A stretch of 64,000 nucleotides of DNA from Squalus acanthias (Eukaryota), in NCBI GenBank assembly GCA_030390025.1, contig CM059432.1:37326001-37390000 (forward strand), read 5' to 3'. Position 1 is the stretch's first letter. Each line of letters starts with the position of its first letter. The position numbers were made by a program, and so were the translations under genes. The notes under the pieces were generated by a model. That model was given only the letters and a program-made list of their open reading frames with translations. It was not told the origin of the DNA and searched no databases. Of this stretch, positions 6,947 through 60,565 are shown one piece after another.

Positions 6947-7070
6947 AATCGGGGGGAAAACTCTCCACTGGCTGGAGTCATACCTAGCACAAAGGAAGAT
7001 GGTTGTGGTGGTTGAAGGTCAATCATCACAGCCCTAGGACATCACTGCAGGAGTTCCTCAGGGCAGTGTC

Positions 7071-9419: not shown

Positions 9420-11999
9420 CCTAGGCCCAACCATCTTCAGCTGCTTCATCAATGATCTTCCCTCCAACATAAGGTCAGAAATGGGGATGTTCGCTGATGA
9501 CTGCACAATGTTCAGTGCCATTCGCAACTCCTCAACTAATGAATCAGTCCACGCCCGCATGCAACAAGACGTGGACGACGGTCAGGCTTGGGCTGATAAG
9601 TGGCAGGTAACATTCGCGCCACAGAAGTGCCAGGCAATGACTATCTTCAACAAGCGAGAGTCTAACCACTGCCCCTTGACATTCAATGGCATTATCATCG
9701 CCCAATCCCCCAGCATCAACATCCTGGGGGGGTCACCATTGACTAGAAACTTAACTGGACCAGCCACATAAATACTTTGGCAACAAGAGCAGGTCAGAGG
9801 CTAGGTATTGTGCGGCAAGTGTCTCACCTCCTGACTCCCCAAAGCCTTTCCACGATCTACAAGGCACAAGTAAAGAGTTTGATGGAATATTCTCCACTTG
9901 CCTGGATGAGTGCAGCTCCAACAACACTCAAGAAGCTCGACACCATCCAGTACAAAGCAGCCTGCTCGATTGGCACCCCATCCACCACCTTAAACATTCA
10001 CTCCCTCCACCACCGGTGTACCGTGGCTGCAGTGTGTACCATCTACAAGATGCACTGCAGCAACTCGCCAAGGCTTCTTCGGCAGCACCTCCCAAACCCG
10101 CGACCTCTTCCACCTAGAAGGACAAGGGCAGCAGGTGCATGGGAACACCACCACCTCCAAGTTCCCCTCCAAGTCACACACCATCCTGACTTAGAAATAT
10201 ATCGCCGATCCTTCATCGTCGCTGGGTCAAAATCCTGGAATTCCCTCCCTAACAGCACTGTGGGAGTACCTTCACCACACGGACTGCAGCGGTTCAAGAA
10301 GGCGGCTCACCACCACCTTCTCAAGGGCAATTAGGGATGGGCAATAAATGCTGGTCTTGCCAGTGACGCCAACATCCCACAAATGAATAAACAAAAACTC
10401 CAGCTTTCTGCAGGGGGTCAACACTGCAAGACTTGCCCTCTACCCACAGAGGCCAGGAGGCCCTCCAGAAAGAACAATATGCGAGTACATTACCAAGGCT
10501 GTCACTGCCAGCAGTGTCGCCCCCACTACCTGGTTCCAGTGCCCAAAGAAGCTTCATGACCTCAGACCACTGGTCAAGGTCAGTGAATGCATCTTCAAAA
10601 GCCGTCACCTACCAACTGCACCACTAGCCTCACACACTGCTCAATGCAGAACCCCCAATCACTCACCTACCAACAGTCTGCACCAAATGACGAGACACAT
10701 CTCCCATTCCTAGCACCCAAGAAATGCAGCCTGCCCAGCCAGTGGGTCAACAAGATGAGGTAACCTGCCCAGTCAGTGGGACCGCAGGCGGATGATTCCA
10801 TCCCGGATACCCCGGCCACAAAAGGGCTGTCTGGGATGCATCCTTCTGTCTGATTCTCTTCGGCTTCCTCCTCTGCTGCGCCTCCTCTTCCCTCTTAAAG
10901 CGGATGCTGTAAATGTGAAATGACAGCATAGGATGCTGCAAATACTCAGTTGGTCAGGCAGCATGTCGACCTGAGACATGAACTCCACGGATGTAGAGTG
11001 ACCTGCTGAGTATTTGCAGCATGTTCTGTCTTCTCAAAGGCGTTCACTTACCATCCGAGCCCTTGCAAGCATCCAGCAGCACTCCCAAAACACTTAAAAA
11101 CTTTTCACATATATTGCAGTAAGCCACCACTTCAATAAAATCCCAAATACCAAGGCCAAACCCTTCTATTCAAACTTACCTGATTGATATGTGTGTCCCT
11201 TTAACAGCTGCAGATATCGCCCTTGTCCACGTATATCAGCCTGCTTGCACGGCAGGTTAACTTGGCGTGCTTAGGACCCAGCGCTGAATTGAGCACTAGG
11301 GTCGAAGTTTGCGTAGATGATGTTAAGTCGGCGTTGCACGCTGACGGATGTCACCACGCCGCCATTTTTTTTTACAGGGCGCTGCCGGTAACCGGCAGTG
11401 CAAAGGGGCCCAGGGATATGGTGGCCACCGCGGAGACTGCCTCCAGCTGGTGCAAGAGCGGCGGCCGCCATTTTTTTGAGAATCGCTGGCACTAACAGGT
11501 GGCGGTAAGTATATGAATTTCTCCCCCTATGATTCTACCCAACTAGAGAGGGCAATAGGAAGTATCAACAAAGTATGTTCTCCCTTTCTATAACGACTTT
11601 TTAACACCGTGACCACCTTATGTGCCAGCTAACTTACTTACTTTAGTTTCTAATCTACTACTGCAACAAAGTCCTCCCTGAGCGGCATCAGGTTGAACAA
11701 TGTGGGGGAGGATGGGGGGCTGGGTCAGTTGCCCTGGAGCCTTATAAATCTGAGGTGATTCTAATTTCAGGGTAGCTGCTGACCCAGAGAGACCTTCAGG
11801 CAGCCTGACATTTGCAGTAGCAAAGGGGCTGGGCCCATGTCTGAAGCTCTTCTGAGAAGGCATTGGATGTGGTCTTAAGGAACATCAGCAGTAACACCTG
11901 CATCCATTCCTTTTTATAATTCATTCTCGGGATGTGGCAAGGCCAGCATTAATTGTCCATCCTTAGTTGCCCTGAAGTGGTGGTAGTGGACCTTTTTTT

Positions 12000-14900
12000 T
12001 CATAGAGTCATAACGGCACAGAAGGAGGCCATTCGGTCCATCGAGTCCGTGCCGGCTCTCTGTAGAGCAATCCAGTCAGTCCCATTCCCCCGTTCTATCC
12101 CCGTAGCCCTGCAAGTTTATTTCCCTCAAGTGCCTATCCAGTCTCCCCTTGAAAACATTGAGTGTCTCCACTTCCACCACTTCCATCGGCAGCGAATTCC
12201 AGGTCATCACCACTCGCTGCGTAAAAAAGTTTTTCATCATATCCCCCCTGTATCTCTTGTCCAAAACCTTAAATCTGTGTCCCCTAGTCCTTGTACCATC
12301 AACTAGTGGGAACAGCCTTTCCCCGTCTAGCCTATCCAAACCCATCATAATCTTGTACACCTCTATCAAATCACCCCTCAACCTCCTTTACTCTAATGAA
12401 AACAAATCCAGCTTCTCCAACCTGTCCTTGTAGCTAAGATCCCCCATTCCCAGAACCATTCTGGTAAATCTCCTCTGCATCCTCTCAAGGGCCTTCACAT
12501 CCTTCCTAATGTGTGGTGACCAGAACTGGACGCAATACTCCAGTTGTGGCCTAACCAGCGCTTTATAAAGGTTCAGCATAACTTCTCTACTTTGTACTCA
12601 ATACCTCTATTTATGAAGCCCAAGATCCCATATGCTTTGTTAACCACTCTCTCAATGGGGGAGAAATTCAGTATCGCCCCATTTGGGGCGCAATTATCGG
12701 CCGGGCGCAAAGATTAGCGCCTGGCGCTAATTATCGCCACCGACTGCAAATTTGACTTTTATCGCCCCTGGAGGTGATTGGAGCGCTAAATCAGGCGCTT
12801 CACAACTGTCTTAAGGCGCAAAGGCCGAGGAGCGAGGCGCTACCTCAAAGCGCTGGTGAAGCTCATGTGATGTCAGTCAGCAACAGAACACACACACAAT
12901 GGCACGGGCCAGTTCTTAAAGGGGATGGTTGATCTTGCTTTCCATCCACATCCTGCTCATTGCAGCCTTGAATCTCGGCCTGGAGAGACCTGCACATCAA
13001 ATCTGCTGTAAAGAACAATGGAGAGTACCAGGGAAAGAGCTCAGAGTGCAGCCCCCACAGTCTCTTCTAAATTGATACAAGGAATGGCAAATCAAAATGA
13101 ACCTGTAAAGTGCTGCTCAGTACCCAAAACTCCTTCACACAGCGTTGAATCTCTCCAGAAGACTCTCTCCCTCTCTCTCAGAATGCGTGGTTCAAAAATG
13201 GCACCAACAATAAAAGGCAGGAAGCGGTCGCCTTTAAATAGCGCTCCCCCAGTCCCTTCATGACTGCAAAACGTTCCCCTCAACATGTCGTTGCTAGCGT
13301 CAGGCGGTAAGGCAGGGGGCGCCACTCAATATCCGCTCCGGGGCGATACTGGGGTGTTGCGCACTCGACTGACATCACGATCTGCCGGCGCAGGAGATCG
13401 TGGCGGTAGTGTTTAGCGCCGCCGCAAAGTGTCTCGTTAATTTCGCGAGCGGCGCAAACATCGCCGCGCCCGGGCGCTAGATGATTTGCGACCCATTAGC
13501 GCCCTCTTAAGGCGCTAACGGGAGGCGCAACCAACTGAATTTTTCCCCCAATATGTCCTGCCACCTTCAGGGACCTATGCACATTAACTCCCAGGTCCCT
13601 CTGTCCCTGCACACTCTTTAAAACTGTGCCATTAAGTGTATATTGCCTCTCCTTATTCCTTCTGCCAAAATGCATCACCTCACACTTCTCTGTATTAAAT
13701 TCCATCTGCCACTTGTCTGCCCATTCTGCTAGCCTTTCTATGTCCTGTTGCAGTCAATTGGTATCATCTCACTGTTTGCCACTCCCCAAGTTTGGTGTCA
13801 TCGGCAAATTTAGAAATTCTACTCTGTATTCCAATATCCAGGTCATTTATATGTATCAAAAAAAGCAGTGGCCCCAGCACTGACCCTTGGTGAACACCAC
13901 TGTCTACCATCCTCCAGTCTGAAAAACAGCCATTTACCACAACTCGCTGTTTTCTGTCCTCAAACCAATTCCTTATCCAAGCTGCCACTGACCCACCTAT
14001 TCCATGAGCCTCAATTTTGTTAACCAGCCTTCTATGTGGTACTTTGTCAAACGCCTTCCAAAAATCCATATAGACAACATCCATTGCATTCCCGTCATCA
14101 ATCCTCTCTGTTACTTCCATCAAAAAATTCAGTTAGATTAGTCAAACACGATCTGCCTTTCACAAATCCGTGTTGGCTCTCCTTAATTAGCTTAAACCTC
14201 TCCAAGTGCCCATTAATTTTTTCCTTGATTATTGTTTCTAAAACTTTACCCACCACTGATGTTAAACTGACCGGCCTGTAGTTACTAGGATTGTCCTTAT
14301 ACCCTTTCTTGAACAATGATATAACATTTGCCACTTTCCAATCCTCAGGCACCTCTCCTGCATCTAGGGAAGATTGGAAAATTATGGCAAGCCCTTCCGC
14401 TATCTCCTCCCCCAATTCCCTTAGCAACCTGGGATGCAAGCCATCTGGACCAGGCGACTTGTCCACTCTAAGCATACCCAGCCTTTCTAGTATATCCTTT
14501 CTATCAATTTTCATCCCTTCCATTGCTTCTACCTTTTCCACTTCTACCGATATTTTGTCAGCATCCACCTCCTTGGTAAACACCGATACGAAGTACTCAT
14601 TGAGTATTCTAGCCTTGCCCTGCGCCTCTAAGCATATATCACCTACTTTGTCTCTAATAGGCCCCACCCCGCCTCTTACTACCCTTTTATGTTAACCGCC
14701 ATTCTACTCTCGTATTCTCTCTTTGCCAATCTTATTTTCATCTTCACATCCCCTCTCAACTTATTATATTTGGTCTGGTTCTCCCTTGAAGAATTCACCT
14801 GACATGCATCATATACCCTCTTTTTTGTTTCATCATCTTCTCGATCTCCCTCGTCATCCAAGGAGCCCTTGCTTTGGTTCCCTTACCCTTCCCTCTTGTT

Positions 14901-23714: not shown

Positions 23715-23903
23715 ATGCAATGCTCAGGACTACATCTGGCACAAAGGGATTCGGTGTGAGTTTATCATCACAGAGTTCCAGGTGATGTGTATAGCGATCG
23801 GCTCCTCGGCAGTGGTGATCCTGCTTCTCTTCCTGCTCACTGTCTTCTTCGCAAAGAAGGTGTACTCCTTAAAAACTGAAAACAAAAAGCTTCGGAAAAG
23901 GAG
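23715..23903 (+). CDS. CSPG5: CSPG5/neuroglycan C-type coding exon: end of EGF-like domain, transmembrane helix, juxtamembrane basic stretch
   Basis: Acceptor ttcttcctacag|A and donor AG|gtgggt; 189 nt, phase 2 at both ends. Translates CNAQDYIWHKGIRCEFIITEFQVMCIAIGSSAVVILLLFLLTVFFAKKVYSLKTENKKLRKR, recognisably like vertebrate CSPG5 (CNTQDYIWHKGMRCESIITDFQVMC...). This frame is not in the ORF track. Ortholog versus paralog not resolved. Confidence 0.95.
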
Positions 23904-30100: not shown

Positions 30101-33100
30101 TAATATTAACACACTCCAGAGAGACTCTGTTAATATTAACACACTCCAGAGAGATCCTGTTAATATTAACACACTCCAGAGAGATCCTGTTAATATTAAC
30201 GCACTCCAGAGAGACCCTGTTAATATTAACACACTCCAGAGAGACTCTGTTAATATTAACACACTCCAGAGAGATCCTGTTAATATTAACACACTCCAGA
30301 GAGATCCTGTTAATATTAACACACTCCAGAGAGACCCTGTTAATATTAACACACTCCAGAGAGATCCTGTTAATATTAACACACTCCAGAGAGACCCTGT
30401 TAATATTAACACACTCCAGAGAGACCCTGTTAATATTAACACACTCCCAGAGAGACCCTGTTAATATTAACACACTCCAGAGAGACCCTGTTAATATTAA
30501 CACACTCCAGAGAGACCCTGTTAATATTAACACACTCCCAGAGAGACTCTGTTAATATTAACACACTCCAGAGAGACCCTGTTAATATTAACACACTCCA
30601 GAGAGATCCTGTTAATATTAACACACTGCAGAGTGACCCTGTTAATATTAACACACTCCAGAGAGATCCTGTTAATATTAACACACTCCAGAGAGATCCT
30701 GTTAATATTAACACACTGCAGAGAGATCCTGTTAATATTATCACACTCCAGAGAGATCCTGTTAATATTAACACACTCCCAGAGAGACTCTGTTAATATT
30801 AACACACTCCAGAGAGATCCTGTTAATATTAACACACTCCCAGAGAGACTCTGTTAATATTAACACACTCCAGAGAGACCCTGTTAATATTAACACACTC
30901 CAGAGAGATCCTGTTAATATTAACACACTCCCAGAGAGACTCTGTTAATATTAACACACTCCAGAGAGATCCTGTTAATATTAACACACTCCCAGAGAGA
31001 CTCTGTTAATATTAACACACTCCCAGAGAGACTCTGTTAATATTAACACACTCCAGAGAGACCCTGTTAATATTAACACACTCCAGAGAGACCCTGTTAA
31101 TATTAACACACTCCCAGAGAGACTCTGTTAATATTAATACACTCCAGAGAGACCCTGTTAATATTAACACACTCCAGAGAGACCCTGTTAATATTAACAC
31201 ACTCCCAGAGACTCTGTTAATATTAACACACTCCCAGAGAGACTCTGTTAATATTAACACACTCCAGAGAGACTCTGTTAATATTAACACACTCCCAGAG
31301 AGACTCTGTTAATATTAACACACTCCCAGAGAGACTCTGTTAATATTAACACACTCCCAGAGAGACTCTGTTAATATTAACACACTCCAGAGAGACTCTG
31401 TTAATATTAACACACTCCCAGAGAGACTCTGTTAATATTAACACACTCCAGAGAGACTCTGTTAATATTAACACACTCCCAGAGAGACTCTGTTAATATT
31501 AACACACTCCCAGAGACTCTGTTAATATTAACACACTCCCAGAGAGACTCTGTTAATATTAACACACTCCAGAGAGATCCTGTTAATATTAACACACTCC
31601 CAGAGTGATCCTGTTAATATTAACACACTCCAGAGAGACTCTGTTTACATTAACACACTCCAGAGAGATCCTGTTAATATTAACACACTCCAGAGAGACT
31701 CTGTTTACATTAACACACTCCAGAGAGATCCTGTTAATATTAACACACTCCCAGAGAGACTCTTTTAATATTAACACACTCCAGAGAGATCCTGTTAATA
31801 TTAACACACTCCCAGAGTGATCCTGTTAATATTAACACACTCCAGAGAGACTCTGTTTACATTAACACACTCCAGAGAGATCCTGTTAATATTAACACAC
31901 TCCCAGAGAGACTCTGTTAATATTAACACACCCCAGAGAGACTCTGTTTACATTAACACACTCCAGAGAGATCCTGTTAATATTAACACACTCCCAGAGA
32001 GACTCTGTTAATATTAACACACTCCCAGAGAGACTCTGTTAATATTAACACACTCCCAGAGAGAATCTGTTTATATTAACACACTCCCAGAGAGACTCTG
32101 TTTATATTAACACACTCCCAGAGAGACTCTGTTAATATTAACACATTCCCAGAGAGACTCTGTTAATATTAACACACTCCCAGAGAGACCCTGTTATTAT
32201 TAACACACCCCAGAGAGAATCTGTTTATATTAACACACTCCCAGAGAGACTCTGTTTATAGTAACACACTCCAGAGAGACCCTGTTAATATTAACACACT
32301 TCCAGAGAGACTCTGTTCATATTAACACACTCCAGAGAGACCCTGTTAATATTAACACACTTCCAGAGAGACTCTGTTCATATTAACACACTCCCAGAGA
32401 GACTGTTAATATTAACACACTCCCAGAGAGACTCTGTTAATATTAACACACTCCCAGAGAGACTCTGTTAATATTAACACACTCCCAGAGAGACTCTGTT
32501 AATATTAACACACTCCAGAGAGACCCTGTTAATATTAACACACTCCCAGAGACTCTGTTAATATTAACACACTTCCAGAGAGACTCTGTTCATATTAACA
32601 CACTCCAGAGAGACCCTGTTAATATTAACACACTCCCAGAGACTCTGTTAATATTAACACACTCCCAGAGACTCTGTTAATATTAACACACTCCCAGAGA
32701 GACTCTGTTAATATTAACACACCCCAGAGAGACTCTGTTAATATTAACACACTCCCAGAGAGACTGTGTTAGTATTAACACACTCATAGAGAGACTCTGT
32801 TAGTATTAACACACTCCCAGAGAGACCCTGTTAATATTAACACACTCCCAGAGAGACTCTGTTAATATTAACACACTCCAGAGAGATCCTGTTAATATTA
32901 ACACACTCCAGAGAGACCCTGTTAATATTAACACACTCCAGAGAGATCCTGTTAATATTAACACACTCCCAGAGAGACTCTGTTAATATTAACACACTCC
33001 CAGAGACCCTGTTAATATTAACACACTCCAGAGAGACTCTGTTTACATTAACACACTCCAGAGAGACCCTGTTAATATTAACACACTCCCAGAGAGACTC

Positions 33101-36100
33101 TGTTAATATTAACACACTCCAGAGTGACCCTGTTAATATTAACACACTCCAGAGAGACCCTGTTAATATTAACACACTCCCAGAGAGACCCTGTTAATAT
33201 TAACACACTCCAGAGTGACCCTGTTAATATTAACACACTCCAGAGAGACCCTGTTAATATTAACACACTCCCAGAGAGACTCTGTTAATATTAACACACT
33301 CCCAGAGAGACTCTGTTAATATTAACACACTCCAGAGAGACCCTGTTAATATTAACACACTCCCAGAGAGACTCTGTTAATATTAACACACTCCAGAGTG
33401 ACCCTGTTAATATTAACACACTCCAGAGAGACCCTGTTAATATTAACACACTCCCAGAGAGACTCTGTTAATATTAACACACTCCAGAGTGACCCTGTTA
33501 ATATTAACACACTCCAGAGTGACCCTGTTAATATTAACACACTCCCAGAGAGACCCTGTTAATATTAACACACTCCCAGAGAGACTCTGTTAATATTAAC
33601 ACACTCCCAGAGAGACTCTGTTATTATTAACACACCCCAGAGAGACTCTGTTAATATTAACACACCCCAGAGAGACTCTGTTATTATTAACACACTCCAG
33701 AGAGACTCTGTAAATATTAGCACACCCCAGAGAGACTCTGTTTATATTAACACACTCCCAGAGAGACTCTGTTAATATTAACACATTCCCAGAGAGACTC
33801 TGTTAATATTAACACACTCCCAGAGAGACCCTGTTATTATTAACACACCCCAGAGAGAATCTGTTTATATTAACACACTCCCAGAGAGACTCTGTTTATA
33901 GTAACACACTCCAGAGAGACCCTGTTAATATTAACACACTTCCAGAGAGACTCTGTTCATATTAACACACTCCAGAGAGACCCTGTTAATATTAACACAC
34001 TTCCAGAGAGACTCTGTTCATATTAACACACTCCCAGAGAGACTGTTAATATTAACACACTCCCAGAGAGACTCTGTTAATATTAACACACTCCCAGAGA
34101 GACTCTGTTAATATTAACACACTCCCAGAGAGACTCTGTTAATATTAACACACTCCAGAGAGACCCTGTTAATATTAACACACTCCCAGAGACTCTGTTA
34201 ATATTAACACACTTCCAGAGAGACTCTGTTCATATTAACACACTCCAGAGAGACCCTGTTAATATTAACACACTCCCAGAGACTCTGTTAATATTAACAC
34301 ACTCCCAGAGACTCTGTTAATATTAACACACTCCCAGAGAGACTCTGTTAATATTAACACACCCCAGAGAGACTCTGTTAATATTAACACACTCCCAGAG
34401 AGACTCTGTTAGTATTAACACACTCATAGAGAGACTCTGTTAGTATTAACACACTCCCAGAGAGACCCTGTTAATATTAACACACTCCCAGAGAGACTCT
34501 GTTAATATTAACACACTCCAGAGAGATCCTGTTAATATTAACACACTCCAGAGAGACCCTGTTAATATTAACACACTCCAGAGAGATCCTGTTAATATTA
34601 ACACACTCCCAGAGAGACTCTGTTAATATTAACACACTCCCAGAGACCCTGTTAATATTAACACACTCCAGAGAGACTCTGTTTACATTAACACACTCCA
34701 GAGAGACCCTGTTAATATTAACACACTCCCAGAGAGACTCTGTTAATATTAACACACTCCAGAGTGACCCTGTTAATATTAACACACTCCAGAGAGACCC
34801 TGTTAATATTAACACACTCCCAGAGAGACCCTGTTAATATTAACACACTCCAGAGTGACCCTGTTAATATTAACACACTCCAGAGAGACCCTGTTAATAT
34901 TAACACACTCCCAGAGAGACTCTGTTAATATTAACACACTCCCAGAGAGACTCTGTTAATATTAACACACTCCAGAGAGACCCTGTTAATATTAACACAC
35001 TCCCAGAGAGACTCTGTTAATATTAACACACTCCAGAGTGACCCTGTTAATATTAACACACTCCAGAGAGACCCTGTTAATATTAACACACTCCCAGAGA
35101 GACTCTGTTAATATTAACACACTCCAGAGTGACCCTGTTAATATTAACACACTCCAGAGTGACCCTGTTAATATTAACACACTCCCAGAGAGACCCTGTT
35201 AATATTAACACACTCCCAGAGAGACTCTGTTAATATTAACACACTCCCAGAGAGACTCTGTTATTATTAACACACCCCAGAGAGACTCTGTTATTATTAA
35301 CACACCCCAGAGAGACTCTGTTATTATTAACACACTCCAGAGAGACTCTGTAAATATTAGCACACCCCAGAGAGACTCTGTTAATATTAACACACTCCAG
35401 AGTGACCCTGTTAATATTAACACACTCCCAGAGAGACTCTGTTAATATTAACACACTCCCAGAGAGACTCTGTTAATATTAACACACTCCAGAGAGATCC
35501 TGTTAATATTAACACACTCCCAGAGAGACCCTGTTAATATTAACACACTTCCAGAGAGACTCTGTTCATATTCACACACTCCAGAGAGACCCTGTTAATA
35601 TTAACACACTCCCAGAGACTCTGTTAATATTAACACACTCCCAGAGAGACTCTGTTAATATTAACACACCCCAGAGAGACTCTGTTAATATTAATACACT
35701 CCCAGAGAGACTCTGTTAATATTAACACACTCCCACAGAGACTCTGTTGATATTAACACACCACAGAGAGACTCTGTTAATATTAACACACTCCCAGAGA
35801 GACTGTTAATATTCACACACTCCCAGAGAGACTCTGTTAATATTAACACACTCCAGAGAGACTCTGTTAATATTAACACACTCCCAGAGAGACTCTGTTA
35901 GTATTAACACACTCCCAGAGAGACTCTGTTAGTATTAACACACTCCCAGAGAGACCCTGTTAATATTAACACACTCCCAGAGAGATTCTGTTAATATTAA
36001 CACACTCCAGAGAGATCCTGTTAATATTAACACACTCCCAGAGAGACTCTGTTAATATTAACACACTCCCAGAGACCCTGTTAATATTAACACACTCCAG

Positions 36101-42100: not shown

Positions 42101-45100
42101 AGAGAGACTCTGTTAATATTAACACACTCCCAGAGACCCTGTTAATATTAACACACTCCAGCGACACTCTGTTAATATTAACACACTCCAGAGAGACTCT
42201 GTTAATATTAACACACTCCCAGAGACTCTGTTAATATTAACACACTCCAGAGAGACTCTGTTAATATTAACACACTCCCAGACAGACTCTCTTAATATTA
42301 ACACACTCCAGAGAGACTCTGTTAATATTAACACACTCCCAGAGAGACTCTGTTAATATTAACACACTCCCAGAGACCCTGTTAATATTAACACACTCCA
42401 GAGAGACTCTGTTAATATTAACACACTCCCAGAGAGACTCTGATAATATTAACTCACTCCCAGAGAGACTCTCTTAATATTAACACACTCCAGAGAGACC
42501 CTGTTAATATTAACACTCTCCAGAGAGACCCTGTTAATATTAACACTCTCCAGAGAGACCCTCTTAATATTAACACTCTCCAGAGAGACTCTGTTAATAT
42601 TAACACACTCCCAGAGAGACTCTGTTAATATTAACTCACTCCCAGAGAGACTCTGTTAATATTAACACACTCCCAGAGAGACTCTGTTAATATTAACACA
42701 CTCCCAGAGAGACCCTGTTAATATTAACACACTCCAGAGAGACCCTGTTAATATTAACACACTCCCAGAGAGACTCTGTTAATATTAACACTCTCCAGAG
42801 AGACCCTGTTAATATTAACACTCTCCAGAGAGACTCTGTTAATATTAACACACTCCCAGAGAGACCCTGTTAATATTAACACTCTCCAGAGAAATTCTGT
42901 TAATATTAACACACTCCCAGAGAGACTCTCTTAATATTAACACACTCCAGAGAGACCCTGTTAATATTAACACTCTCCAGAGAGACCCTGTTAATATTAA
43001 CACTCTCCAGAGAGACCCTGTTAATATTAACACTCTCCAGAGAGACTCTGTTAATATTAACACACTCCCAGAGAGACCCTGTTAATATTAACACACTCCC
43101 AGAGACCCTGTTAATATTAACACACTCCCAGAGAGACTCTGTTAATATTAACACACTCCCAGAGACTCTGTTAATATTAACACACTCCCAGAGAGATTCT
43201 GTTTATATTAACACACTCCAGAGAGACTCTGTTAATATTAACACACTCCCAGAGACCCTGTTAATATTAACACACTCCAGAGAGACTCTGTTAATATTAA
43301 CACACTCCCAGAGAGACCCTGTTAATATTAACACACTCCCAGAGACCCTGTTAATATTAACACACTCCCAGAGAGACTCTGTTAATATTAACACACTCCC
43401 AGTGACCCTGTTAATATTAACACACTCCCAGAGAGACTCTGTTAATATTAACACACTCCAGAGAGACCCTGTTAATATTAACACACTCCAGAGAGACACT
43501 GTTAATATTAACACACTCCCAGAGAGACTCTGTTAATATTAACACACTCCCAGAGAGACTCTGTTAATATTAACACACTCCCAGAGAGACTCTGTTAATA
43601 TTAACACACTCCAGAGAGACTCTGTTAATATTAACACACTCCAGAGAGACTCTGTTAATATTAACACACTCCCAGAGAGACCCTCTTAATATTAACACAC
43701 TCCCAGAGAGACTCTGTTAATATTAACACACTCCCAGAGAGACTCTGTTAATATTAACACACTCCAGAGAGACCCTGTTAATATTAACACACTCCAGAGG
43801 GACCCTGTTAGTATTAACACACTCCCAGAGACTCTGTTAATATTAACACACTCCCAGAGAGACTCTGTTAATATTAACACACTCCCAGAGAGACTCTGTT
43901 AATATTAACACACCCCAGAGAGACTCTGTTAATATTAACACACTTCCAGAGAGACTCTGTTAATATTAACACACTCCCAGAGAGACCCTGTTAATATTAA
44001 CACACTCCCAGAGAGACCCTGTTAATATTAACACACTCCAGAGAGACCCTGTTAATATTAACACACTCCAGCGAGACTCTGTTAATATTAACACACTCCC
44101 AGAGAGACCCTGTTAATATTAACACACTCCCAGAGAGACTCTGTTAATATTAACACACTCCCAGAGAGACTCTGTTAATATTAACACACTCCCAGAGACC
44201 TTGTTAATATTAACACACTCCAGAGAGACTCTGTTAATATTAACACACTCCAGAGAGACTCTGTTAATATGAACACACTCCAGAGAGACTCTGTTAATAT
44301 TAACACACTCCCAGAGAGACCCTGTTAATATTAACACTCTCCAGAGAAATTCTGTTAATATTAACACACTCCCAGAGAGACTCTCTTAATATTAACACAC
44401 TCCAGAGAGACCCTGTTAATATTAACACTCTCCAGAGAGACCCTGTTAATATTAACACTCTCCAGAGAGACCCTGTTAATATTAACACTCTCCAGAGAGA
44501 CTCTGTTAATATTAACACACTCCCAGAGAGACCCTGTTAATATTAACACACTCCCAGAGACCCTGTTAATATTAACACACTCCCAGAGAGACTCTGTTAA
44601 TATTAACGCACTCCCAGAGACTCTGTTAATATTAACACACTCCCAGAGAGATTCTGTTTATATTAACACACTCCAGAGAGACTCTGTTAATATTAACACA
44701 CTCCCAGAGACCCTGTTAATATTAACACACTCCAGAGAGACTCTGTTAATATTAACACACTCCCAGAGAGACCCTGTTAATATTAACACACTCCCAGAGA
44801 CCCTGTTAATATTAACACACTCCCAGAGAGACTCTGTTAATATTAACACACTCCCAGTGACCCTGTTAATATTAACACACTCCCAGAGAGACTCTGTTAA
44901 TATTAACACACTCCAGAGAGACCCTGTTAATATTAACACACTCCAGAGAGACACTGTTAATATTAACACACTCCCAGAGAGACTCTGTTAATATTAACAC
45001 ACTCCCAGAGAGACTCTGTTAATATTAACACACTCCCAGAGAGACTCTGTTAATATTAACACACTCCAGAGAGACTCTGTTAATATTAACACACTCCAGA

Positions 45101-45777
45101 GAGACTCTGTTAATATTAACACACTCCCAGAGAGACCCTCTTAATATTAACACACTCCCAGAGAGACTCTGTTAATATTAACACACTCCCAGAGAGACTC
45201 TGTTAATATTAACACACTCCAGAGAGACCCTGTTAATATTAACACACTCCAGAGGGACCCTGTTAGTATTAACACACTCCCAGAGACTCTGTTAATATTA
45301 ACACACTCCCAGAGAGACTCTGTTAATATTAACACACTCCCAGAGAGACTCTGTTAATATTAACACACCCCAGAGAGACTCTGTTAATATTAACACACTT
45401 CCAGAGAGACTCTGTTAATATTAACACACTCCCAGAGAGACCCTGTTAATATTAACACACTCCCAGAGAGACCCTGTTAATATTAACACACTCCAGAGAG
45501 ACCCTGTTAATATTAACACACTCCAGCGAGACTCTGTTAATATTAACACACTCCCAGAGAGACCCTGTTAATATTAACACACTCCCAGAGAGACTCTGTT
45601 AATATTAACACACTCCCAGAGAGACTCTGTTAATATTAACACACTCCCAGAGACCTTGTTAATATTAACACACTCCAGAGAGACTCTGTTAATATTAACA
45701 CACTCCAGAGAGACTCTGTTAATATGAACACACTCCAGAGAGACTCTGTTAATATTAACACACTCCAGAGAGACTCT

Positions 45778-46508
45778 GGGGTAAAAATTGAGTCGCGCCC
45801 CATTTGGGGCGCTAACCTCGCCGGGGCGCGACTTTAAGCGCCCCGAAAAAATTAGCGGCCCCGCGCCGGAACTTCAGTGGTTGCGCCCCAAGAGGGAAGC
45901 GGGGCGCAACTGGAAGCAGCCCGCATCCCTCTTGGGGCGCTGCGAGTGAATATCCTGGCGCTACGTGCCGCGGTATTGCAGGCCTTCCTCCCCTTCTTAA
46001 AGGGGAGGGACCCTGCGCAGCGCGAACCGGTTCCCAGCTGGGCCCCCAGGGATCGGGAGTGCCGGCAAAAGAGCCCGGCACTCAAGAGAAGTGCCGGGCT
46101 CTTGGAGCGCAGCCGGCACTTCACGGTGGGGGGGCTTCACGGGGGCCGGGGGCAGGTGCTGGCAGGCGGCCAGCAACAAAAATGGCCGCCTGCCACCTCC
46201 GCTTTAAATATCGCCGCCCCGGCCGCACGTACGCCTCCCTGAACCCGTCGGACATAGCGTCTGGCGGTAAATCAGGGGGCGCGACTGAAGATCACGGCCG
46301 GGGCGCGAGCGGGGTGCTGCGCACGGCGATGACGTCATCGCCGGCGGCGCAGCGCCACAGGGCGCTACCGGCTGCCGCCGCCGCTAACCTACCACTAAAT
46401 TTTTCGGGAGGCGTGGGCGGCGCTGCGCCCGGGCGTTAGCTGCTTTACGCCCCATTAGCGCCCTCTTAAGGCGCTAACGGGAGGCGCAAGCAGCTGAATT
46501 TTTCCCCC
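45778..46508 (+). mobile_element. 731-bp GC-rich Harbinger-type MITE (MITE B) inserted in the satellite
   Basis: GGGGTAAAAATTGAG ... CTGAATTTTTCCCCC; TCT TSD; terminal ~55 bp nearly the same as the right end of MITE A. Confidence 0.9.
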
Positions 46509-46694
46509 TCTGTTAATATTAACACACTCCAGAGAGACTCTGTTAATATTAACACACTCCAGAGAGACCCTGTTAATATTAACACACTCCGAGAGAGACT
46601 CTGTTAATATTAACACACTCCAGAGAGACTCTGTTAATATTAACACACTCCCAGAGAGACACTGTTAATATTAACACACTCCCAGAGAGACTCT

Positions 46695-47587
46695 GGGGGA
46701 AAAATTCAGTTAGTTGTGCCTCCCGTTAGCGCCTTAAGAGGGCGCTAATGGGGCGCAAAGCATCTTGCGCCCAGGCGCGGCGAAGTATGCACCGCTCGCG
46801 AAATTAACTAGACATTTTGCGGCGGCGCTAAACACTACCGCCACGATCTCCTGCGCCGGCAGATCATGACGTCACTCGAGTGCGCAACGCCCCGGTATCG
46901 CCCCGGAGTGGAAATTGAGTGGCGCCCCCTGCCTTACCGCCTGACGCTAGCAACGACAGGTTGAGGGGAGCGTTCTGCAGTCATGAAGGGAAAGGGGGAG
47001 CGCTATTTAAAGGTGACCGCTTCCTGCCTTTTATTGTTCGTGCCATTTTTGAACTACGCATTCTGAGAGAGAGAGGGAGAGACTTCTGGAGAGATTCAAC
47101 GTTGTGCGAAGGAGTTTTGGGTATTGAGCAGCACTTTGCAGGTTCATTTTGATTTGCCATTCCTTGTATCGATTTAGCAGAGACTGTGGGAGCTTCCCTC
47201 TGAGCTCTTTGCCTGGTACTCTCCATTGTTCTTTCCAGCACATTTGATGTGCAAGTCTCTCCAGGCCAAGATTCAAGGCTGCAATGAGCAGGATGTGGAT
47301 GGAAAGCAAGATTAACCATCCCCTTTAAGAACTGGCCCATGCCATTGTGTGTGTGTTCCATTGCTGACTGACATTACATGAGCTTCGCCAGCGCTCTGAG
47401 GTAGCGCCTCGCTCCTCGGCCTTTGCGCCTTAAGACAGTTGTGAAGCGCCTGATTTAGCGCTCCAATCACCTCCAGGGGCGATAAAAGTCAAGTTTGCAG
47501 TCGGTGGCGATAATTAGCGCCAGGCGCTAATCTTTGCGCCCGGCCGATAATTGCGCCCCAAATGGGGCGATACTGAATTTCTCCCCC
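46695..47587 (-). mobile_element. 893-bp Harbinger-type MITE A, second copy, inverted relative to 12657-13549
   Basis: GGGGGAAAAATTCAG ... CTGAATTTCTCCCCC; TCT TSD; same length as and colinear with the reverse complement of 12657-13549. Confidence 0.93.
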
Positions 47588-49584
47588 TCTGTTAATATTA
47601 ACACACTCCAGAGAGAGTCTGTTAATATTAACACACTCCAGAGAGAGTCTGTTAATATTAACACACTCCCAGAGAGACTCTGTTAATATTAACACACCCC
47701 AGAGAGACTCTGTTAATATTAACACACTCCAGAGAGACCCTGTTAATATTAACACACTCCCAGAGAGACCCTGTTAATATTAACACACTCCCAGAGAGAC
47801 CCTGTTAATATTAACACACTCCCAGAGCGACTCTGTTAATATTAACACACTCCCAGAGACCCTGTTAATATTAACACACTTCCAGAGATCCTGTTAATAT
47901 TAACACACTCCCAGTGACCCTATTAATATTAAGACACTCCAGAGAGACTCTGTTAATATTAATACACTCCAGAGAGACTCTGTTAATATTAACACACTCC
48001 CAGAGAGACTCTGTTAATATTAACACACTCCCAGAGAGACCTTGTTAATATTAACACACTCCCAGAGAGACCCTGTTAATATTAACACACTCCAGAGAGA
48101 TCCTGTTAATATTAACACACTCCCAGAGAGACCCTGTTAATATTAACACACTCCCAGAGAGACTCTGTTAAGATTAACACACTCCCAGAGACCCTGTTAA
48201 TATTAACACACTCCAGAGAGACCCTGCAAATATTAACACACTCCCAGATACCCCCTGCAAATATTGACACAGTTCCAGATACCCCTGCAAATATTGATAC
48301 ACTCCCAGATACCCCCTGCAAATATTGACACACTCCCAGACACACACTGTTAATATTGACTCATTCCCAGGGACGCCCTGTTAATATTAACACATTCTCA
48401 GGGAAGTTTCGTAATGTTGACATACTCCTGAGGACCCTCTGGTAATGTTCATACTCCCATGGACCCCCTGTTAATATTAACACACTCCCAGGGATACTTG
48501 GTACATATTATCACACTCCCAGGTACCTCCTGCATTTCATGTTGGCCCCTTTAAGTCAGTGGAAAGAGGCTTGCAAAAGTTGCAACTCATCAATCAGAGC
48601 TGGATTCAACCCAAGCCTCAGAAAAATAGGACCACATGCTAATTTATCGTGATACCCAATCCCCAACTTTCTAAACTATTAATTTCTGTTACATCAATTT
48701 CCCATGGATCAAACCCTTCCCATAACTCCCATTGAGGGTTACTTACACCTCTCTCTCTCTGCGTTCCTATTACCTTTCTGCCTCTCACTATATTACACCT
48801 CTCCCTCTCTCATTCTGCATTCGACCTATTCCTCGATCACTCTGTGTTAGATCACTCCCCTGGAGGCAACAAGCTAAATTAGCACATTTTCACGTTCGTT
48901 CCTGTGTTTTTTGCATTGCTCAGCTGTGAATGTTCAGCCTGGTTTAAAACCCCAAGAACAAATAATATAAAATGATTTACCAGTGAACAGGAGGAAACTT
49001 TGGCCAGTTGGCTTCATGGAGAATTTCATTCTTCAGAACTTGCAGTGATAGCTGTCATTGAACCCACCTCTGGTAGTATGAACCAAGTGAACTTGGCACA
49101 ACGGGACCTGGGTTATATCACCGATTGGGAGCAGGCCCCTCAGTGGGGTGTTTATAGAGTCTGTGCAGGATGCTCATTAGCACAGAGACAGACAGTGCTC
49201 TCTGTGTAATCAATAATGAAAGAGCAGTTTATGTGAAATCTAATTAAGGAGTCCTGTCGTTGTTGACCTTTCTCGTTTCCCTCGTGTGATGAAGAGAAAC
49301 AACTTTCAAAGCAAATGTTTCACAACCTCTTGTCACTCAAGGTTGTGTCAGTCAGATGCAAACAATTTAATCAAAGCTGGGAACTGGCTGGTGAAGGAGT
49401 GCTGTGAGGATTAAGTAGGAGTGACCCAGCCTCAGCCTGTGGTTTCCATGGAGACGAGTTGCTAAATAGCTGTTCAAAATTAGCCAGAGATTCTATGAAA
49501 GATTTTCAAACATGACTCATTTTCCCCTCCCAGTTTTCTCCCCCTCTCTCCTGAGGGGACAAGGCACCTTCCAGTACCACACAT

Positions 49585-50855
49585 GGTGATGATGCGGAGA
49601 TGCCGGTGTTGGACTGGGGTGGACAAAAATGAGAAGTCGCACAACACCAGGTTATAGTCCAACAGATTTATTTAAAATTACAAGCTTTCGGAGCTGTCGC
49701 CCCTTCGTCAGGTAAAGGTACAATGAAGGAATCTACAATATTACACAGTATATAAACACAGAAACTGCAGAGATACAATCTTTGAGGGAAGCATTACTTC
49801 AAAGACACACCAGAGCACAGCCAAGACAATGAGATGGATCACAGGGGGTCCAACGTGTCAAATCCTGCTGTCTGCAGTTGAGCTTTTAACCTTTTTTTGG
49901 GTTTTTTTTGTGTTTTTTTTAAAAACTGGAAAGACAGACAACGATGTCGAGTCACGTTCTGTAGCGTGACATGAACCCGATATCCCTATTGAGGCCGTCC
50001 TCATGGGTGCGGATCTTGGCTATCAGTTTCTGCTCGATGATTTTGCGTTGTGTGTCTCGAAGGCCGCCTTGGAGAACGCTAACCTGCAGATCCGAGGCTG
50101 AATGTCCTTGACTGCTGAAGTGTTCCCCGACTAGGAGGTAACAATCCTGCCTGGCGATTGTTGCGCTGTGTCCGTTGATACGTTGTCTTAGTGTCTGCAT
50201 GGTCTCGCCGATGTACCATGCTCTGGGGCATCCTTTCCTGCAACGTATCAGGTAGACAACGTTGGCCGAGTCACATGAGTATGTACCATGTACCTGGTGG
50301 GTAGTGTCCTCACGTGTGATGACGGTATCTGTGTTGATGATCTGGCATGTCTTGCAGAGGTTGCCGTGGCAGGGTTGTGTGGTGTCGTGGTTGCTGTTCT
50401 CCTGACAGCTGGGTAATTTGCTGCGAACGATGGTACTTTTGAGGTTAGGTGGCTGCTTGAAGGCGAGTAGTGGAGGCATGGGGATGGCCTTAGCAAGGTG
50501 TTCATCGTCATCGATGACATGTTGAAGGCTGCGAAGAACATGGCGTAGTTTCTCCGCTCCGGGGAAGTACTGGACGACGTAGGGTACTCTGTTGGTTGTG
50601 TCCCGTGTTCGCCTTCTGAGGAGGTCTATGCGGTTTTTCGCTGTGGCCCGTCGGAACTGTCGATCGACGAGTCGAGCGTCATATCCCGTTCTTACGAGGG
50701 CGTCTTTCAGTGTCCGTAGGTGTCCATCGCGTTCCTCCTCATCTGAGCAGATCCTGTGTATTCGCAGGGCTTGTCCATAGGGGATGGCTTCTTTAACGTG
50801 GTTAGGGTGGAAGCTGGAGAAGTGGAGCATCGTGAGGTTGTCCGTGGGCTTGGTG
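49585..50855 (-). mobile_element. 5'-truncated Penelope-like retroelement (RT C-terminus plus GIY-YIG endonuclease)
   Basis: ORF 49952-50935(-): KPTD...HFSSFHP...IPYGQALRIHRICS, C..CKTC linker, NVVYLIRC...WYIGET...LRQRINGH, GLNRD. Confidence 0.95.
49678..49715 (-). ncRNA. Minimal type I hammerhead ribozyme motif in the Penelope 3' region
   Basis: Minus strand TTAC-CTGACGA-A-GGGGC-gaca-GCTCC-GAAAG-CTT-GTAA: stem I TTAC/GTAA, stem II GGGGC/GCTCC, loopless palindromic stem III. Confidence 0.7.
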
Positions 50856-51594
50856 AGTGTTGGCTGCAATAGGTGGCACAACTGAGCACCATCCTTGTCC
50901 TTGCCTAACCTCCATTTACTCACTCTTTTCAGCATCAGTTACTGGATAGGATCAGGAACCAGGCACTCTGACACAGTGGTACAGATCAGCCTCGATCTGA
51001 TTGAATGGCAGAACAGGCTTGAGGGGCTGAATGGCCTCCTGCTGTTCCTATGTCCTAGCTGCGAGTAGATAACTCAGCATGTGGTCCTTGGACCTCCCTG
51101 TTCTGTTTTGGTCAGCTACTCACTGGGTAATCTGACTGGGCCACTGGGGCAGGTTCCTCCCCTTGCCCTCTGAGGTTGACTCTTTCTAGGGTACAGTTTC
51201 CATGTGCCCTCAGCTACCCTCTGGTTTCTCAACGCCACGGTGCCTTTCATCTTGTGTGTGCCTCGGCAGCAAGTCTTGTTGGGCTATTCATCCACAGGGG
51301 CATCACAGTCCAGTCTGATCCTATCCCTTATTTGACATCTACTTTCCAGCAGGTGTCACAACCAGGAGCGGGGATTCAAGATGTTTCCGTCCCCAACTCC
51401 TTAGCCCAGTGGTACTGAGGCCAATTGTAGCTATCAGCGGTCAGTCGCCCCGCTCTATAATGATCAGCTAACTCGGCACAGACTGTGGGGGGGTGGGTGG
51501 CGGGTGTTGAAATTCGTTTGCAGTTGATTGAAATTTGATTCTACAAGAATGTTGCCGGATAAAGCAGCTTTCTCCCTGTCTAGTGCAGTAACTG

Positions 51595-54793: not shown

Positions 54794-56795
54794 CTTGATG
54801 GGTCTGATGATCTTGGTGGGCCTGATGATCTTGATGGGTCCAATGATCTTGATGGGTCCGATGATCTTGATGGGCCCGAGGATCTTGATGGGCCCGATGA
54901 TCTTGATGGGTCCGATGATCTTGATGGGTCCGATGATCTTGATGGGTCCGATGATCTTGATGGGTCCGATGATCTTGATGGGTCCGATGATCTTGATGGG
55001 TCCGATGATCTTGATGGGCCCGATGATCTTGATGGGCCCGATGATCTTGATGGGCCCGATGATCTTGATGGGCCCGATGATCTTGATGGGCCCGATGATC
55101 TTGATGGGTCCGATGATCTTGATGGGCCCGATGATCTTGATGGGCCCGATGATCTTGATGGGTCCGATGATCTTGATGGGCCCGATGATCTTGATGGGCC
55201 CGATGATCTTGATGGGCCCGATGATCTTGATGGGCCCGATGATCTTGATGGGTCCGATGATCTTGATGGGCCCGATGATCTTGATGGGCCCGATGATCTT
55301 GATGGGTCCGATGATCTTGATGGGTCCGATGATCTTGATGGGCCTGATGATCTTGATGGGCCTGATGATGTTGATGGACCCGATGATCTTGATGGGTCCG
55401 ATGATCTTGATGGGCCCGATGATCTTGATGGACCCGATGATCTTGATGGGTCCGATGATCTCGATGGTTCTGATGATCTCGATGGTTCTGATGATATCGA
55501 TGGTTCTGATGATCTTGATGGGCCCGATGATCTTGATGGGTCCGGTGATCTTGATGGGTCCGATGATCTTGATGGGTCCGATGATCTTGATGGACCCGAT
55601 GATCTTGATGGGTCCGATGATCTCGATGGTTCTGATGATCTCGATGGTTCTGATGATATCGATGGTTCTGATGATCTTGATGGGCCTGATGATGTTGATG
55701 GGCCCGATGATGTTGATGGGCCCGAGGATCTTGATGGACCCGATGATCTCGATGGACCCGATGATCTCGATGGTTCTGATGATATCGATGGTTCTGATGA
55801 TATCGATGGTTCTGATGATCTCGATGGTTCTGATGATCTTGATGGGCCTGATGATCTTGATGGGCCTGATGATGTTGATGGGCCCGAGGATCTTGATGGA
55901 CCCGAGGATCTTGATGGACCCGATGATCTTGATGGACCCGATGATCTCGATGGTTCTGATGATGTTGATGGACCCGATGATCTTGATGGGTCTGATGATG
56001 TTGATGGACCCGATGATGTTGATGGACCCGATGATCTTGATGGGCCCGAGGATCTCGATGGTTCTGATGATCTTGATGGGCCCGATGATGTTGATGGACC
56101 CGATGATCTTGATGGTTCTGATGATATCGATGGTTCTGATGATATCGATGGTTCTGATGATATCGATGGTTCTGATGATATCGATGGTTCTGATGATCTC
56201 GATGGTTCTGATGATCTTGATGGGTCTGATGATGTTGATGGACCCGATGATCTTGATGGGCCCGATGATCTTGATGGGTCCGATGATCTTAATGGGCCCG
56301 ATGATCTTGATGGGTCTGATGATCTTGATGGGTCTGATGATCTTGATGGGCCTGATGATCTTGATGGGCCCGAGGATCTTGATGGACCCGATGATCTTGA
56401 TGGGTCTGATGATCTTGATGGGCCTGATGATCTTGATGGACCCGATGATCTTGATGGACCCGATGATCTCGATGGGTCTGATGATCTTGATGGGTCTGAT
56501 GATCTTGATGGACCCGATGATCTTGATGGACCCGATGATCTTGATGGACCCGATGATCTTGATGGGTCCGATGATCTTGATGGGCCTGATGATCTTGATG
56601 GGCCTGATGATGTTGATGGACCCGATGATCTTGATGGGCCTGAGGATCTTGATGGGCCCGAGGATCTTGATGGGCCCGATGCTCTTGATGGGTCCGATAA
56701 TCTTGATGGGCCTGATGATATCGATGGTTCTGATGATATCGATTTGTCTGATGCTCTTGATGGGTCTGATGATCTTGATAGTCCAGATGATCTTT
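54794..56795. repeat. 18-bp minisatellite GATGATCTTGATGGG(C/T)CC, about 111 units, with no frame-shifting indels
   Basis: Directly visible; gives uninterrupted ORFs on both strands. Confidence 0.98.
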
Positions 56796-57740: not shown

Positions 57741-58714
57741 CAGTTTTTTGTTATGACTTCAAGTCCTGGACTTGGGGCTTTGTATCCACAGCTTTCTAAT
57801 TCAGAGGGGAGAGTTCAACCACGAGGTAAAGCTGACATTTTAATGCTTAAAAATCTACAAAATCTGATTTTGCTCAGAATTAAAAAGCTCGATTTGACAA
57901 AAAAGGGGGAAATAAACAAATGGAGAAATTGGAGCTCAAAATATGAGAGTAAATTCACGGATCCCGTTCTCACATAGTAACAAGAATAGGCCATTCAGCG
58001 CTCAAGCCTGTTGCGTCATTTTATTAGATCATGGCTGATTTGTACCTCAACTCCATTTACCCGCCTTTGATCCGTCACAGCAAGGAGCCATGCTCGAAGG
58101 CACTGTGAGTTCAACTATAGCCCTATCTCCAAGCTGTTCTCCCTGGATGTGCGGCCCCACACTGGGACATGGGATAGGTGAATTTACCCGATCGTGTTTG
58201 CTGTTTGATAAGATTATGTGGAATTTGTGTCCCAGAATTGGCTAATAAAATCCAAATTAGCCTGCCAGTGCAGTGGTGGGACCCTCTGATCTGCCAAGCA
58301 TTTATATTAAAAGAGAGACGATAACAAGTAATCAGGCAGAGAAACGACTTTAGAAAGTCTTTGCCCCACCCCCTTGCCCCAATAATAGAAACAAGACTAT
58401 TGTGACAGCTTGACACAGTGATTCGTTTGCATATGCACAGATTCAGGGAGGAAAGGGCTTCCTGAGCAGGTCATGACTGAGCGAGGCTGCCATGGTTTCC
58501 CCAGTGAGGCAGGGAAGTGGTTTTGAAAGACTTTCTGTGATCCGCACACCTCCCCCACACACTGAATCAGCACCAGAGACAACTGGAAATTATCTGTTGT
58601 TTGAGAATGAGACCCCCCTTCCATTCCAGGCTCTGAAAGAACTTGAAACTAAGCTGGCTCTGCTCCATCCATGATTTCCTACTCTTTTGCTCCCCTCTCC
58701 CCTCAAAGGCACTA

Positions 58715-58852
58715 GGGTAGATCTTGACTTTGTGCGATAGTGTAAAATGTGTGAGAGCGAATTGGCAGCCTGTTTTACATCTCTCCCAATTTTTATTTCC
58801 ATTGACTTCCACTGACCCATTTTATGCTATCGCACAAAGTCAAAATTTACCC
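58715..58852. mobile_element. 138-bp MITE with ~35-bp TIRs flanked by TA
   Basis: GGGTAGATCTTGACTTTGTGCGATAGTGTAAAATG ... CATTTTATGCTATCGCACAAAGTCAAAATTTACCC. Confidence 0.75.
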
Positions 58853-59481
58853 TAGTGACTCATGCTGGAGTACAGCTCCATGGGTGCTGTCTGCTCTCCC
58901 ACACCTAGTTCCAAATGGCCAAGACAGCAGTGTCCGGGAGATCCATGTTTAATTCTGGGAGACTCCAGGACAATCCGGGAGGGTTGGCTACCCTACATCA
59001 GGAGCAAGAATCCTGGCTGATTTATCGCCTGCCCAGCCCAGGAGCGCTGAGGCTGATTGTACTGGCCCTGTGATTGGCTGGCTCAGCACAAACCGGACCC
59101 GCTCTGCTCCTCCACTGTCGATAGCTGGCTGATATATCATTCGTCCTTCGACATCGGAGTGAGGTCTTTGATGACTGATGAGATCGACTTTTGCTCGGAA
59201 TGAGCGTCTGCGGAGTGAACTGTGGATCCCGGATATACTAGTTTGGGAATCTGGATTTTTCAAGCGAGACCTCCTCAGCTGGCGTTTACATTCAGCATCA
59301 GCAATGTGACAGGCCTCATAGTAAGGGGTACCTTCATGAATGGTTTTTCGCCATGCTTTTTTATCTTGAGCAAGTTGTTCCCACTTCTGGACATCTATTT
59401 AGCACTGTTTCCGAGTCGCTTTTATACCTCTTGTTGGCCAGCATGAAATCGCTTCCCAGTTGCCAATGTGCCATAAAAGAT

Positions 59482-60142
59482 GTAGAGAGAGCCTTACTCT
59501 TTATTTAACCCATGCTGTTCCTGTCATGGGGGTGTTTGATGGAACAGTGTAGAGGGATCTTTACTCTGTATCTAACCCATGCTGTTCCTGTCATGGGGGT
59601 GTTTGATGGAACAGTGTAGAGGGAGCTTTACTCTGTATCTAACCCGTGCTGTACCTGCCCTGGGAGTGTTTGATGGGACAGTGTAGAGGGAGCTTTACTC
59701 TGTATCTAACCCATGCTGTTCCTGTCATGGGAGTGTTTGATGGAACAGTGTAGAGGGAGCTTTACTCTGTATCTAACCCGTGCTGCACCTGCCCTGGGAG
59801 TGTTTGATAGGACAGTGTAGAGGGAGCTTTACTCTATATCTAACCCGTGCTGTACCTGCCCTGGGAGTGTTTGATGGGACAGTGTAGAGGGAGCTTTACT
59901 CTGTATCTAACCCATGCTGTTCCTGTCATGGGAGTGTTTGATGGAACAGTGTAGAGGGAGCTTTACTCTGTATCTAACCCGTGCTGCACCTGCCCTGGGA
60001 GTGTTTGATAGGACAGTGTAGAGGGAGCTTTACTCTATATCTAACCCGTGCTGTACCTGCCCCGGGAGTGTTTGATCGGACAGTGTAGAGGGAGCTTTAC
60101 TCTGTATCTAACCTGTGCTGTACCTGCCCTGGGAGCTTTTGA
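59482..60142. repeat. 67-bp minisatellite, about 10 copies
   Basis: Unit cagtgtagagggagctttactctgtatctaacccgtgctgtacctgccctgggagtgtttgatggga; period 67 (59545, 59612, ...). Confidence 0.97.
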
Positions 60143-60408
60143 TGCTGACACTGGGTACCTGCAATGAGAAGTGCTCCAATCCGCAGCACTGACATCCCTC
60201 ACCTGATGAACAGAAAGTTTAAAAACAAATTAGAAGAACATAGATGCGAATGAATTGCCTACAGAAGGCACACATGTGTAAGATTGCAATCGTGCATTGA
60301 GGAGTTGGGATGATCACCATAACCCGCAGGTGAGATAGTATGTCTGTCCCTCAGGGTACTTTGCATTAATATAATACATTAAATGAAACATTCTGCTATG
60401 TTTTTCAG

Positions 60409-60565
60409 CAAATACAGGCCTCAGCTGGAACAACACAACGACAATTTCTCTCTCTCCACCATTGCCGAGGGCTCCCACGCAAATGTAAGAAAACTATGCA
60501 CCACTTCATCTAATCTTTTACCCCATGGCCGTGCGTTGGCTTACTATGATAATATTATATGTCAG
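60409..60565 (+). CDS. CSPG5: CSPG5 cytoplasmic-domain exon; short form ends 60484, long form ends 60565
   Basis: Acceptor tttttcag|C completes AG+C=Ser in phase with the upstream exon. Reads KYRPQLEQHNDNFSLSTIAEGSHAN, then donor gtaaga or in-frame extension VRKLCTTSSNLLPHGRALAYYDNIICQ|gtaatc. HNDNFSLSTIAEGSH is the CSPG5 C-terminal motif. Confidence 0.95.

Follow-up and report, generated by a model that had tools for sequence, protein, structure and literature searches.

In vertebrates, PIF/Harbinger elements are reported to have a 3-bp TSD and an extended 15-bp target preference (PMC2836001), and Harbinger3_DR of zebrafish is described as integrating into AAACACCWGGTCTTT (AAACAC-CWG-GTCTTT, where hyphens, here and below, set off the duplicated triplet; PMC3016246); we found no paper that gives the Harbinger target in a 17-bp form. 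In the elephant shark, one survey failed to detect Harbinger, and it urged that other cartilaginous fish be checked (PMC9179366). For satellite DNA, an accretion model as outlined in one report has TE insertions clustering at the ends of arrays (PMC5411766). Here, we describe two Harbinger-type MITEs of different families, inserted six units apart at the same base of a satellite unit, and argue that target preference accounts for their shared phase, while their closeness is partly explained by growth of the array.

The window, by which we mean the whole 64,000-nt stretch of DNA analysed, is repeat-rich vertebrate DNA, which its repeat families suggest to be of shark type. At 23715-23903 (+) lies a probable host-gene exon with an EGF-like end and a transmembrane segment, which we take to resemble CSPG5; it gave no significant Pfam or PDB match, and its splice phase fits the next exon. 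That next exon, at 60409-60484 (+), is CSPG5/neuroglycan-C-like and matches Pfam PF06567 (neuroglycan-C cytoplasmic domain, E 2.2e-11). Since the two exons are phase-compatible, the satellite array lies in the ~36.5-kb intron between them, and thus probably within a single intron of a CSPG5-like gene. This probable intron (23904-60408) holds three tandem arrays: the 31-bp array treated here, an 18-bp array (54794-56794, 111 copies) and a 67-bp array (59481-60144). Two further features were seen, namely a ~150-bp element at 58714-58862 that has inverted ends of its own and no relation to A or B, and a minus-strand fragment at 49600-50860 that by eye resembles a Penelope-type retroelement.

The 30/31-bp tandem array spans 24886-48522, including both MITEs. 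MITE B (45778-46508, +) is 731 bp long, non-coding and 67% GC, with TIRs alike at 13 of 15 positions and a repeated subterminal GGCGCTAA. MITE A2 (46695-47587, -) is 893 bp long and non-coding, with TIRs alike at 15 of 16 positions, and belongs to a very abundant family. The earlier note had described this arrangement accurately: both elements occupy these intervals, each flanked by TCT/TCT within GAGAGAC-TCT-GTTAATA (left and right copies at 45775-45777 and 46509-46511 for B and at 46692-46694 and 47588-47590 for A2, all +), and the TGTTAATATTAACA palindrome adjoins the insertion site, starting at the T,G following the right-hand TSD. The two lie in opposite orientation, 186 bp apart; this spacer (46509-46694, +) consists of six satellite units oriented as the flanks are, and a run of 30-bp units extends from one side of B to the other. 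With B read left to right and A2 right to left, their right (R) ends face each other, and these facing ends are near-identical, as claimed, matching at 55 of 60 terminal bases. An inverted spacer between the facing ends is ruled out by its units, all six of which point the same way as those outside. B and A2 are also the sole insertions in the array: after removal of both elements and one TSD copy each (22,019 bp, 725 units), a wrap-around alignment revealed no other insertion of 3 or more bases. Were all phases equal, the same-phase coincidence would have a chance probability of ~1/31.

B and A2 are different elements, as the note held, and belong to two separate families that share only their ends. 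The left ends of A and B are alike over 65 bp (75%) and the right ends over ~275 bp (73%), and BLAST found no alignment between the middles. A TIR scan of the window yielded eight ends forming four pairs: B, A2 and two elements outside the satellite. The first of these, A1 (12657-13549, +), is a second full family-A copy in LINE-like DNA with TSD AAT; it is identical to A2 at 842 of 893 bases (94.3%; 5.7% different), without indels, both copies being 893 bp. The other, element C (3257-11527, +; TSD TAT), has TIRs of the same class as A and B and carries nested LINE-like inserts, the nesting being judged by eye; its end (11527) lies 1.1 kb from the start of A1 (12657). C sits in a GATTCTAT-type LINE tail; these inserts, together with a piece near 10900-11030 that resembles a SINE, have enlarged it to 8.3 kb. 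A lone related end, GGGGCTAAAATT, occurs at 243-254 on the minus strand with C in the -1 flank; a partner was not found in the window.

All four elements have TIRs of 12-16 bp that start with G (GGGG(G/T)A(A/G)AAATT) and a 3-bp TSD (TCT, TCT, AAT and TAT). At B, A2 and C, the duplication could be read as either 3 or 5 bp (TCT or CTCTG at B and A2); A1 permits only 3 bp (AAT), which rules out a 5-bp CNNNG duplication, and therefore we take the TSD as 3 bp. The subterminal GGCGCTAA motif occurs in 9 and 13 copies in the two MITEs, compared with 0.7 in shuffles, and may be a binding site for a Myb-like protein. Translated in all six frames and inspected by eye, neither A2 nor B nor the non-LINE ends of C contained anything transposase-like. 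The CpG observed/expected ratio is 0.87-1.01 in the elements (1.01 in B) versus 0.02 in the array. B retains all of its CpGs and is thus a CpG island within a CpG-free array; it also contains internal hairpins at 45868-45955.

Public sequencing runs extend this picture beyond the window. Parts of 45778-47587 are contained in 20 of 23 runs, with 11 organisms represented, so one or both of the families must be common to related species; the remaining runs, X21-X23, have a share of 0.00, which counts neither for nor against. Because no run holds more than 0.78 of the words of this stretch, the runs may stem from another individual or species than the assembly. For comparison, we used 46655-47625, which is A2 with about one satellite unit of flank on each side, and family A contigs matching it number 27,423 in X1, 41,605 in X2, and 5,714 and 809 in X6 and X8. 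Family A is thus small, non-coding, abundant and of uniform length (the two 893-bp copies without indels), as is usual for a MITE. A 30-base end motif common to A and B had 0 matches in JGI metagenome contigs.

These contigs also reveal the target of family A. Among the matches listed, the sequence beyond its left TIR has the consensus ATA GT(C/G)TTTT in 192 (X1), 221 (X2) and 21 (X6) contigs. Shifted by one base, it is (T)AA GTCTTTT in 202 X2 contigs. AAAAGAC AAT precedes the right TIR of a family-A subfamily in 84 X1 contigs; the corresponding right-TIR row in X2 (106 contigs, among the matches listed) is similar and less clean. The consensus was taken as majority letters from the 24 rows listed out of 989, all of family A. 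Together, these flanks imply a family-A target of approximately AAAAGAC-WWW-GT(C/G)TTTT in majority letters. Agreement in the left-TIR rows is just 0.38-0.42 over 30 letters, so the family-A flanks are mixed. Set against the published motif, the consensus (again as majority letters) displays the extended palindromic preference of PIF/Harbinger, with flanks almost equal to those of the Harbinger3_DR target. Within the satellite unit, GAC-TCT-GT is the sole AC-NNN-GT phase among 31, and the phase used ranks top or ties for top in all five scoring schemes, with 1-3 phases sharing that score. The used phase is therefore the best target match in the unit, and a shared phase is to be expected, the odds lying somewhere from 1 in 3 to near certainty rather than at 1 in 31. 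The proposal that these are Harbinger-type elements with a target-sequence preference thus holds, and this preference accounts for the shared phase. The preference is loose, since the sites of A1 and C match the AC..GT core at just two of four bases; across the four window sites, C occupies -1 in all four and G occupies +1 in three, A1 lacking the latter. The TCT at B and A2 differs from the A/T-rich central triplet of the consensus.

The array itself has grown recently and unevenly. Its main body (24886-45777, +; ~686 units) contains many recent block duplications, including 2 x 1640 bp (54 units) at 32099-35378 (+) with 2 substitutions (0.12%) and 2 x 1455 bp (48 units) at 42837-45746 (+) with 1 substitution (0.07%), the latter ending one unit before B. 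Near-identical 10-unit blocks hold 327-420 of 724 units, a figure that is 0-1 in shuffles, and to the right of B no unit belongs to one; with the visible duplicates removed, 485-552 of 724 units remain. The right end (47588-48522, +; ~31 units) has no near-identical paralogous block and degenerates after ~48200. The 1455-bp duplication halts one unit short of B as if the element bounded expansion, and an assembly error is also possible there. In a separate observation, units at 48200-48522 are longer and divergent and resemble unit variants in the run contigs, which suggests a dispersed minisatellite family. Divergence from the consensus unit is flat, at about one mismatch per unit save in the last ~12 units; we therefore rejected it as an age gradient that could date the MITE region. 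Nor does the tally of substitution types (55 of 93) discriminate, as the same count fits both 100-200 and 490-690 starting units. More can be said of A2: at 11 or more of its 893 positions (among the rows listed, 40 of 137), >90% of the read depth of both X1 and X2 disagrees with it. Given these differences and the 5.7% that separates it from A1, compared with 0.07% and 0.12% for the duplications, A2 would be older than the block duplications, assuming that its differences arose after insertion.

How surprising is a spacing of six units? In a static array, two insertions fall six or fewer units apart with P ~0.017, and both fall within the last 39 units with P ~0.0015. A toy simulation of two insertions in an array growing by block duplication, with both insertions kept single (a condition that 0.5-38% of 1500 replicates satisfied), raised the probability of a spacing of six or fewer units to 0.04-0.05 from 450 starting units, 0.07-0.11 from 300, 0.10-0.23 from 150 and 0.25-0.44 from 80. 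At the 485-552-unit size, the corresponding value is 0.04-0.05, and that for both lying near an end is 0.01-0.03. A probability above 0.1 thus requires that the array had ~150-300 units or fewer at the time of insertion. Array growth, together with the post hoc choice of the locus, makes the spacing unremarkable without explaining it away, so that the closeness of the pair is only partly explained.

Altogether, we consider it probable that the pair is explained by ordinary target preference, combined with the survival of insertions at the end of the growing array that has not been amplified. B and A2 would have inserted independently, by cut and paste. Both would be non-autonomous PIF/Harbinger (PHIS) elements, related to each other and moved in trans by a transposase made up of two proteins (DDE plus Myb/SANT); which transposase this was, we infer. 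The transposase would read a palindromic target of approximately AAA(G/C)AC-NNN-GT(C/G)TTT and duplicate its central 3 bases. As the satellite unit offers one best match, GAC-TCT-GT, insertions into the array would tend toward that base. Both MITEs lie near the unamplified right end, and the left part would have kept growing by block duplication after A2 arrived, in which case the effective target was smaller than 22 kb. Insertions in the interior would tend to be lost or duplicated. That B shares the target of A, how large the array was at insertion and in what order the two elements arrived are points that we infer from the sequence.

Other explanations assign a more active role to the satellite or to the elements. 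The first proposal, that the family homes to the satellite, draws on the presence of two families in the array and on its density of AC-NNN-GT sites, of which there are 623 in the array (28 per kb) versus 122 elsewhere (3 per kb). Sites nine times denser make some passive enrichment possible, yet no per-base excess is seen, with two elements in 22 kb of array versus two in ~38 kb outside (p = 0.63, within the window). Two of the four window elements, A1 and C, lie in LINEs outside the array, and hundreds of family-A ends have mixed, non-satellite flanks (192, 221 plus 202, and 21 contigs, among the matches listed). In agreement with these mixed loose ends, satellite-flank depth relative to the element median is 0.77% and 0.012% in X1 and 0.24% and 0.05% in X2, values that come partly from satellite-only contigs and form a rough bound, because summed depth is no copy number and bins at the ends of the stretch are under-filled. 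Specific targeting of the satellite by this family is accordingly very improbable, though a modest genome-wide satellite excess is possible. Local hopping in the strict sense fails for another reason: A and B are different families that align at their ends alone, so B and A2 cannot be hop copies of one element. The note had further suggested that the outer ends could act as a composite carrying the six units (1,810 bp from B to A2), by which new arrays might be seeded. On either side the outermost TIR is intact, the outer triplets agree (TCT/TCT), and the runs contain related variants of the satellite unit. The outermost end is a left end on both sides, each from a different family; since both ends of rice mPing are reported to play similar roles (PMC9921582), two left ends are possible as a transposition substrate by analogy. 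However, B and A2 each have their own TSD, the match of the outer triplets follows from the shared phase, and had the pair arrived as a composite, three insertions in the same phase would have been required. The inner six units continue the flank, and nowhere in the array is a run of 30-bp units longer than the one that spans B, also six (units 683-688), so the cargo looks local. No TIR was found within ~300 bp of either array end, and neither a copy of the satellite unit elsewhere nor a second composite with cargo was found in the 64,000-nt window. With satellite-flank depth below 1% of element depth in addition, we give seeding by a composite a very slim chance. Among the open-licence papers listed, we found no Harbinger composite carrying a satellite. 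A broader version, in which a resident Harbinger MITE causes a second, different one to land no more than a few hundred bases from it, by means of subterminal binding motifs common to both or of a CpG island in the CpG-free array, and the pair brackets satellite and occasionally transposes as one, spreading a dispersed shark minisatellite, would likewise be a long shot.

The remaining alternatives concern the spacing alone. The same target preference may have been joined by a local pull whereby the first MITE made its neighbourhood a hot spot for the second, either through a putative Myb-like protein on subterminal GGCGCTAA that would tether the incoming complex or through open chromatin at the CpG-rich island. 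The static-array probability of 0.017 would favour such a pull, as would the 9 and 13 motif copies (0.7 expected) and the contrast in CpG between elements and array described above, and microsatellite MITEs of pineapple are reported to cluster by adjacent insertion in 46% of copies (PMC8449440). Against it, this is a single pair chosen post hoc from a genome scan, array growth lifts the chance value to 0.04-0.23, and A1 and C show no comparable pairing, the two lying 1.1 kb apart and thus beyond 1 kb; we regard a local pull as unlikely, though worth some weight. Mis-joining in the tandem array could also have produced the near-perfect duplications or the six-unit spacing. Errors are common in long tandem arrays, the two large duplications differ by just 1-2 bases, and no contig in runs X1, X2, X6 and X8 spans 46655-47625, an absence that proves nothing about other individuals. 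Clean 3-bp TSDs at both MITEs, spacer units that are distinct variants and a window without N make an assembly artefact highly improbable.

Read as target preference with retention at the old end, the pair is a tidy example of a known rule, in which a tandem repeat presents many copies of a site that suits the extended target preference of Harbinger, and growth of the array, on the best reading, leaves insertions at its old end. The new content is small, namely a Harbinger3_DR-like flank motif with an A/T-rich central triplet in a cartilaginous-fish lineage. Were MITE attraction or composites moving satellite real, they would offer a testable route for minisatellite spread, and attraction would be a self-targeting behaviour that we have not found described for vertebrate Harbingers; the evidence here gives this little weight.

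Among known systems, the A and B elements appear to work like PHIS MITEs of the Harbinger3_DR type. They share with Harbinger3_DR and Harbinger3N_DR of zebrafish the 3-bp TSD and the existence of non-autonomous derivatives (PMC3016246 and PMC2836001, citing Sinzelle et al. 2008), as well as nearly the same palindromic target flanks, reported as AAACAC..GTCTTT there and found as AAAAGAC..GT(C/G)TTTT here (PMC3016246). The central triplet is CWG in the published motif, unlike the A/T-rich consensus here (ATA, TAA, AAT; also TCT and TAT), and the likeness to Harbinger3_DR is one of TSD and target. NuwaI of the PHIS superfamily, as described, also has TIRs that start with GGG (PMC4482050). Its CWG duplication is unlike what we see, as CWG occurs at none of the four window sites and the read consensus is A/T-rich. 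NuwaII is similar in that its 3-bp TSD stands between C and G, which leaves the choice between 3 and 5 bp just as ambiguous (C-TNA-G; PMC4482050). The C..G flanks fit, but TNA is found at none of the four window sites (+ strand) and in one of three distinct read-consensus triplets (TAA).

Three other comparisons concern the setting of the pair. As in the accretion model, insertions lie near an unamplified end while the body of the array duplicates (PMC5411766, citing McAllister and Werren 1999); that account treats pericentric Drosophila satellites and mostly full-length TEs, whereas ours is an intronic 22-kb minisatellite-type array with MITEs. A reported double insertion through site preference likewise places two insertions in one target motif by ordinary preference (PMC5932611), although there the very same site was used, with one TSD between the elements, and here the same phase was used in different units. 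Finally, Ac-mMITE-1 and -2 of pineapple are likewise a pair of MITE families whose ends are related and which sit, often side by side, in a tandem repeat; they are described as Mutator-derived with a genome-wide preference for (TA)n (PMC8449440), whereas family A lies mostly outside the satellite.
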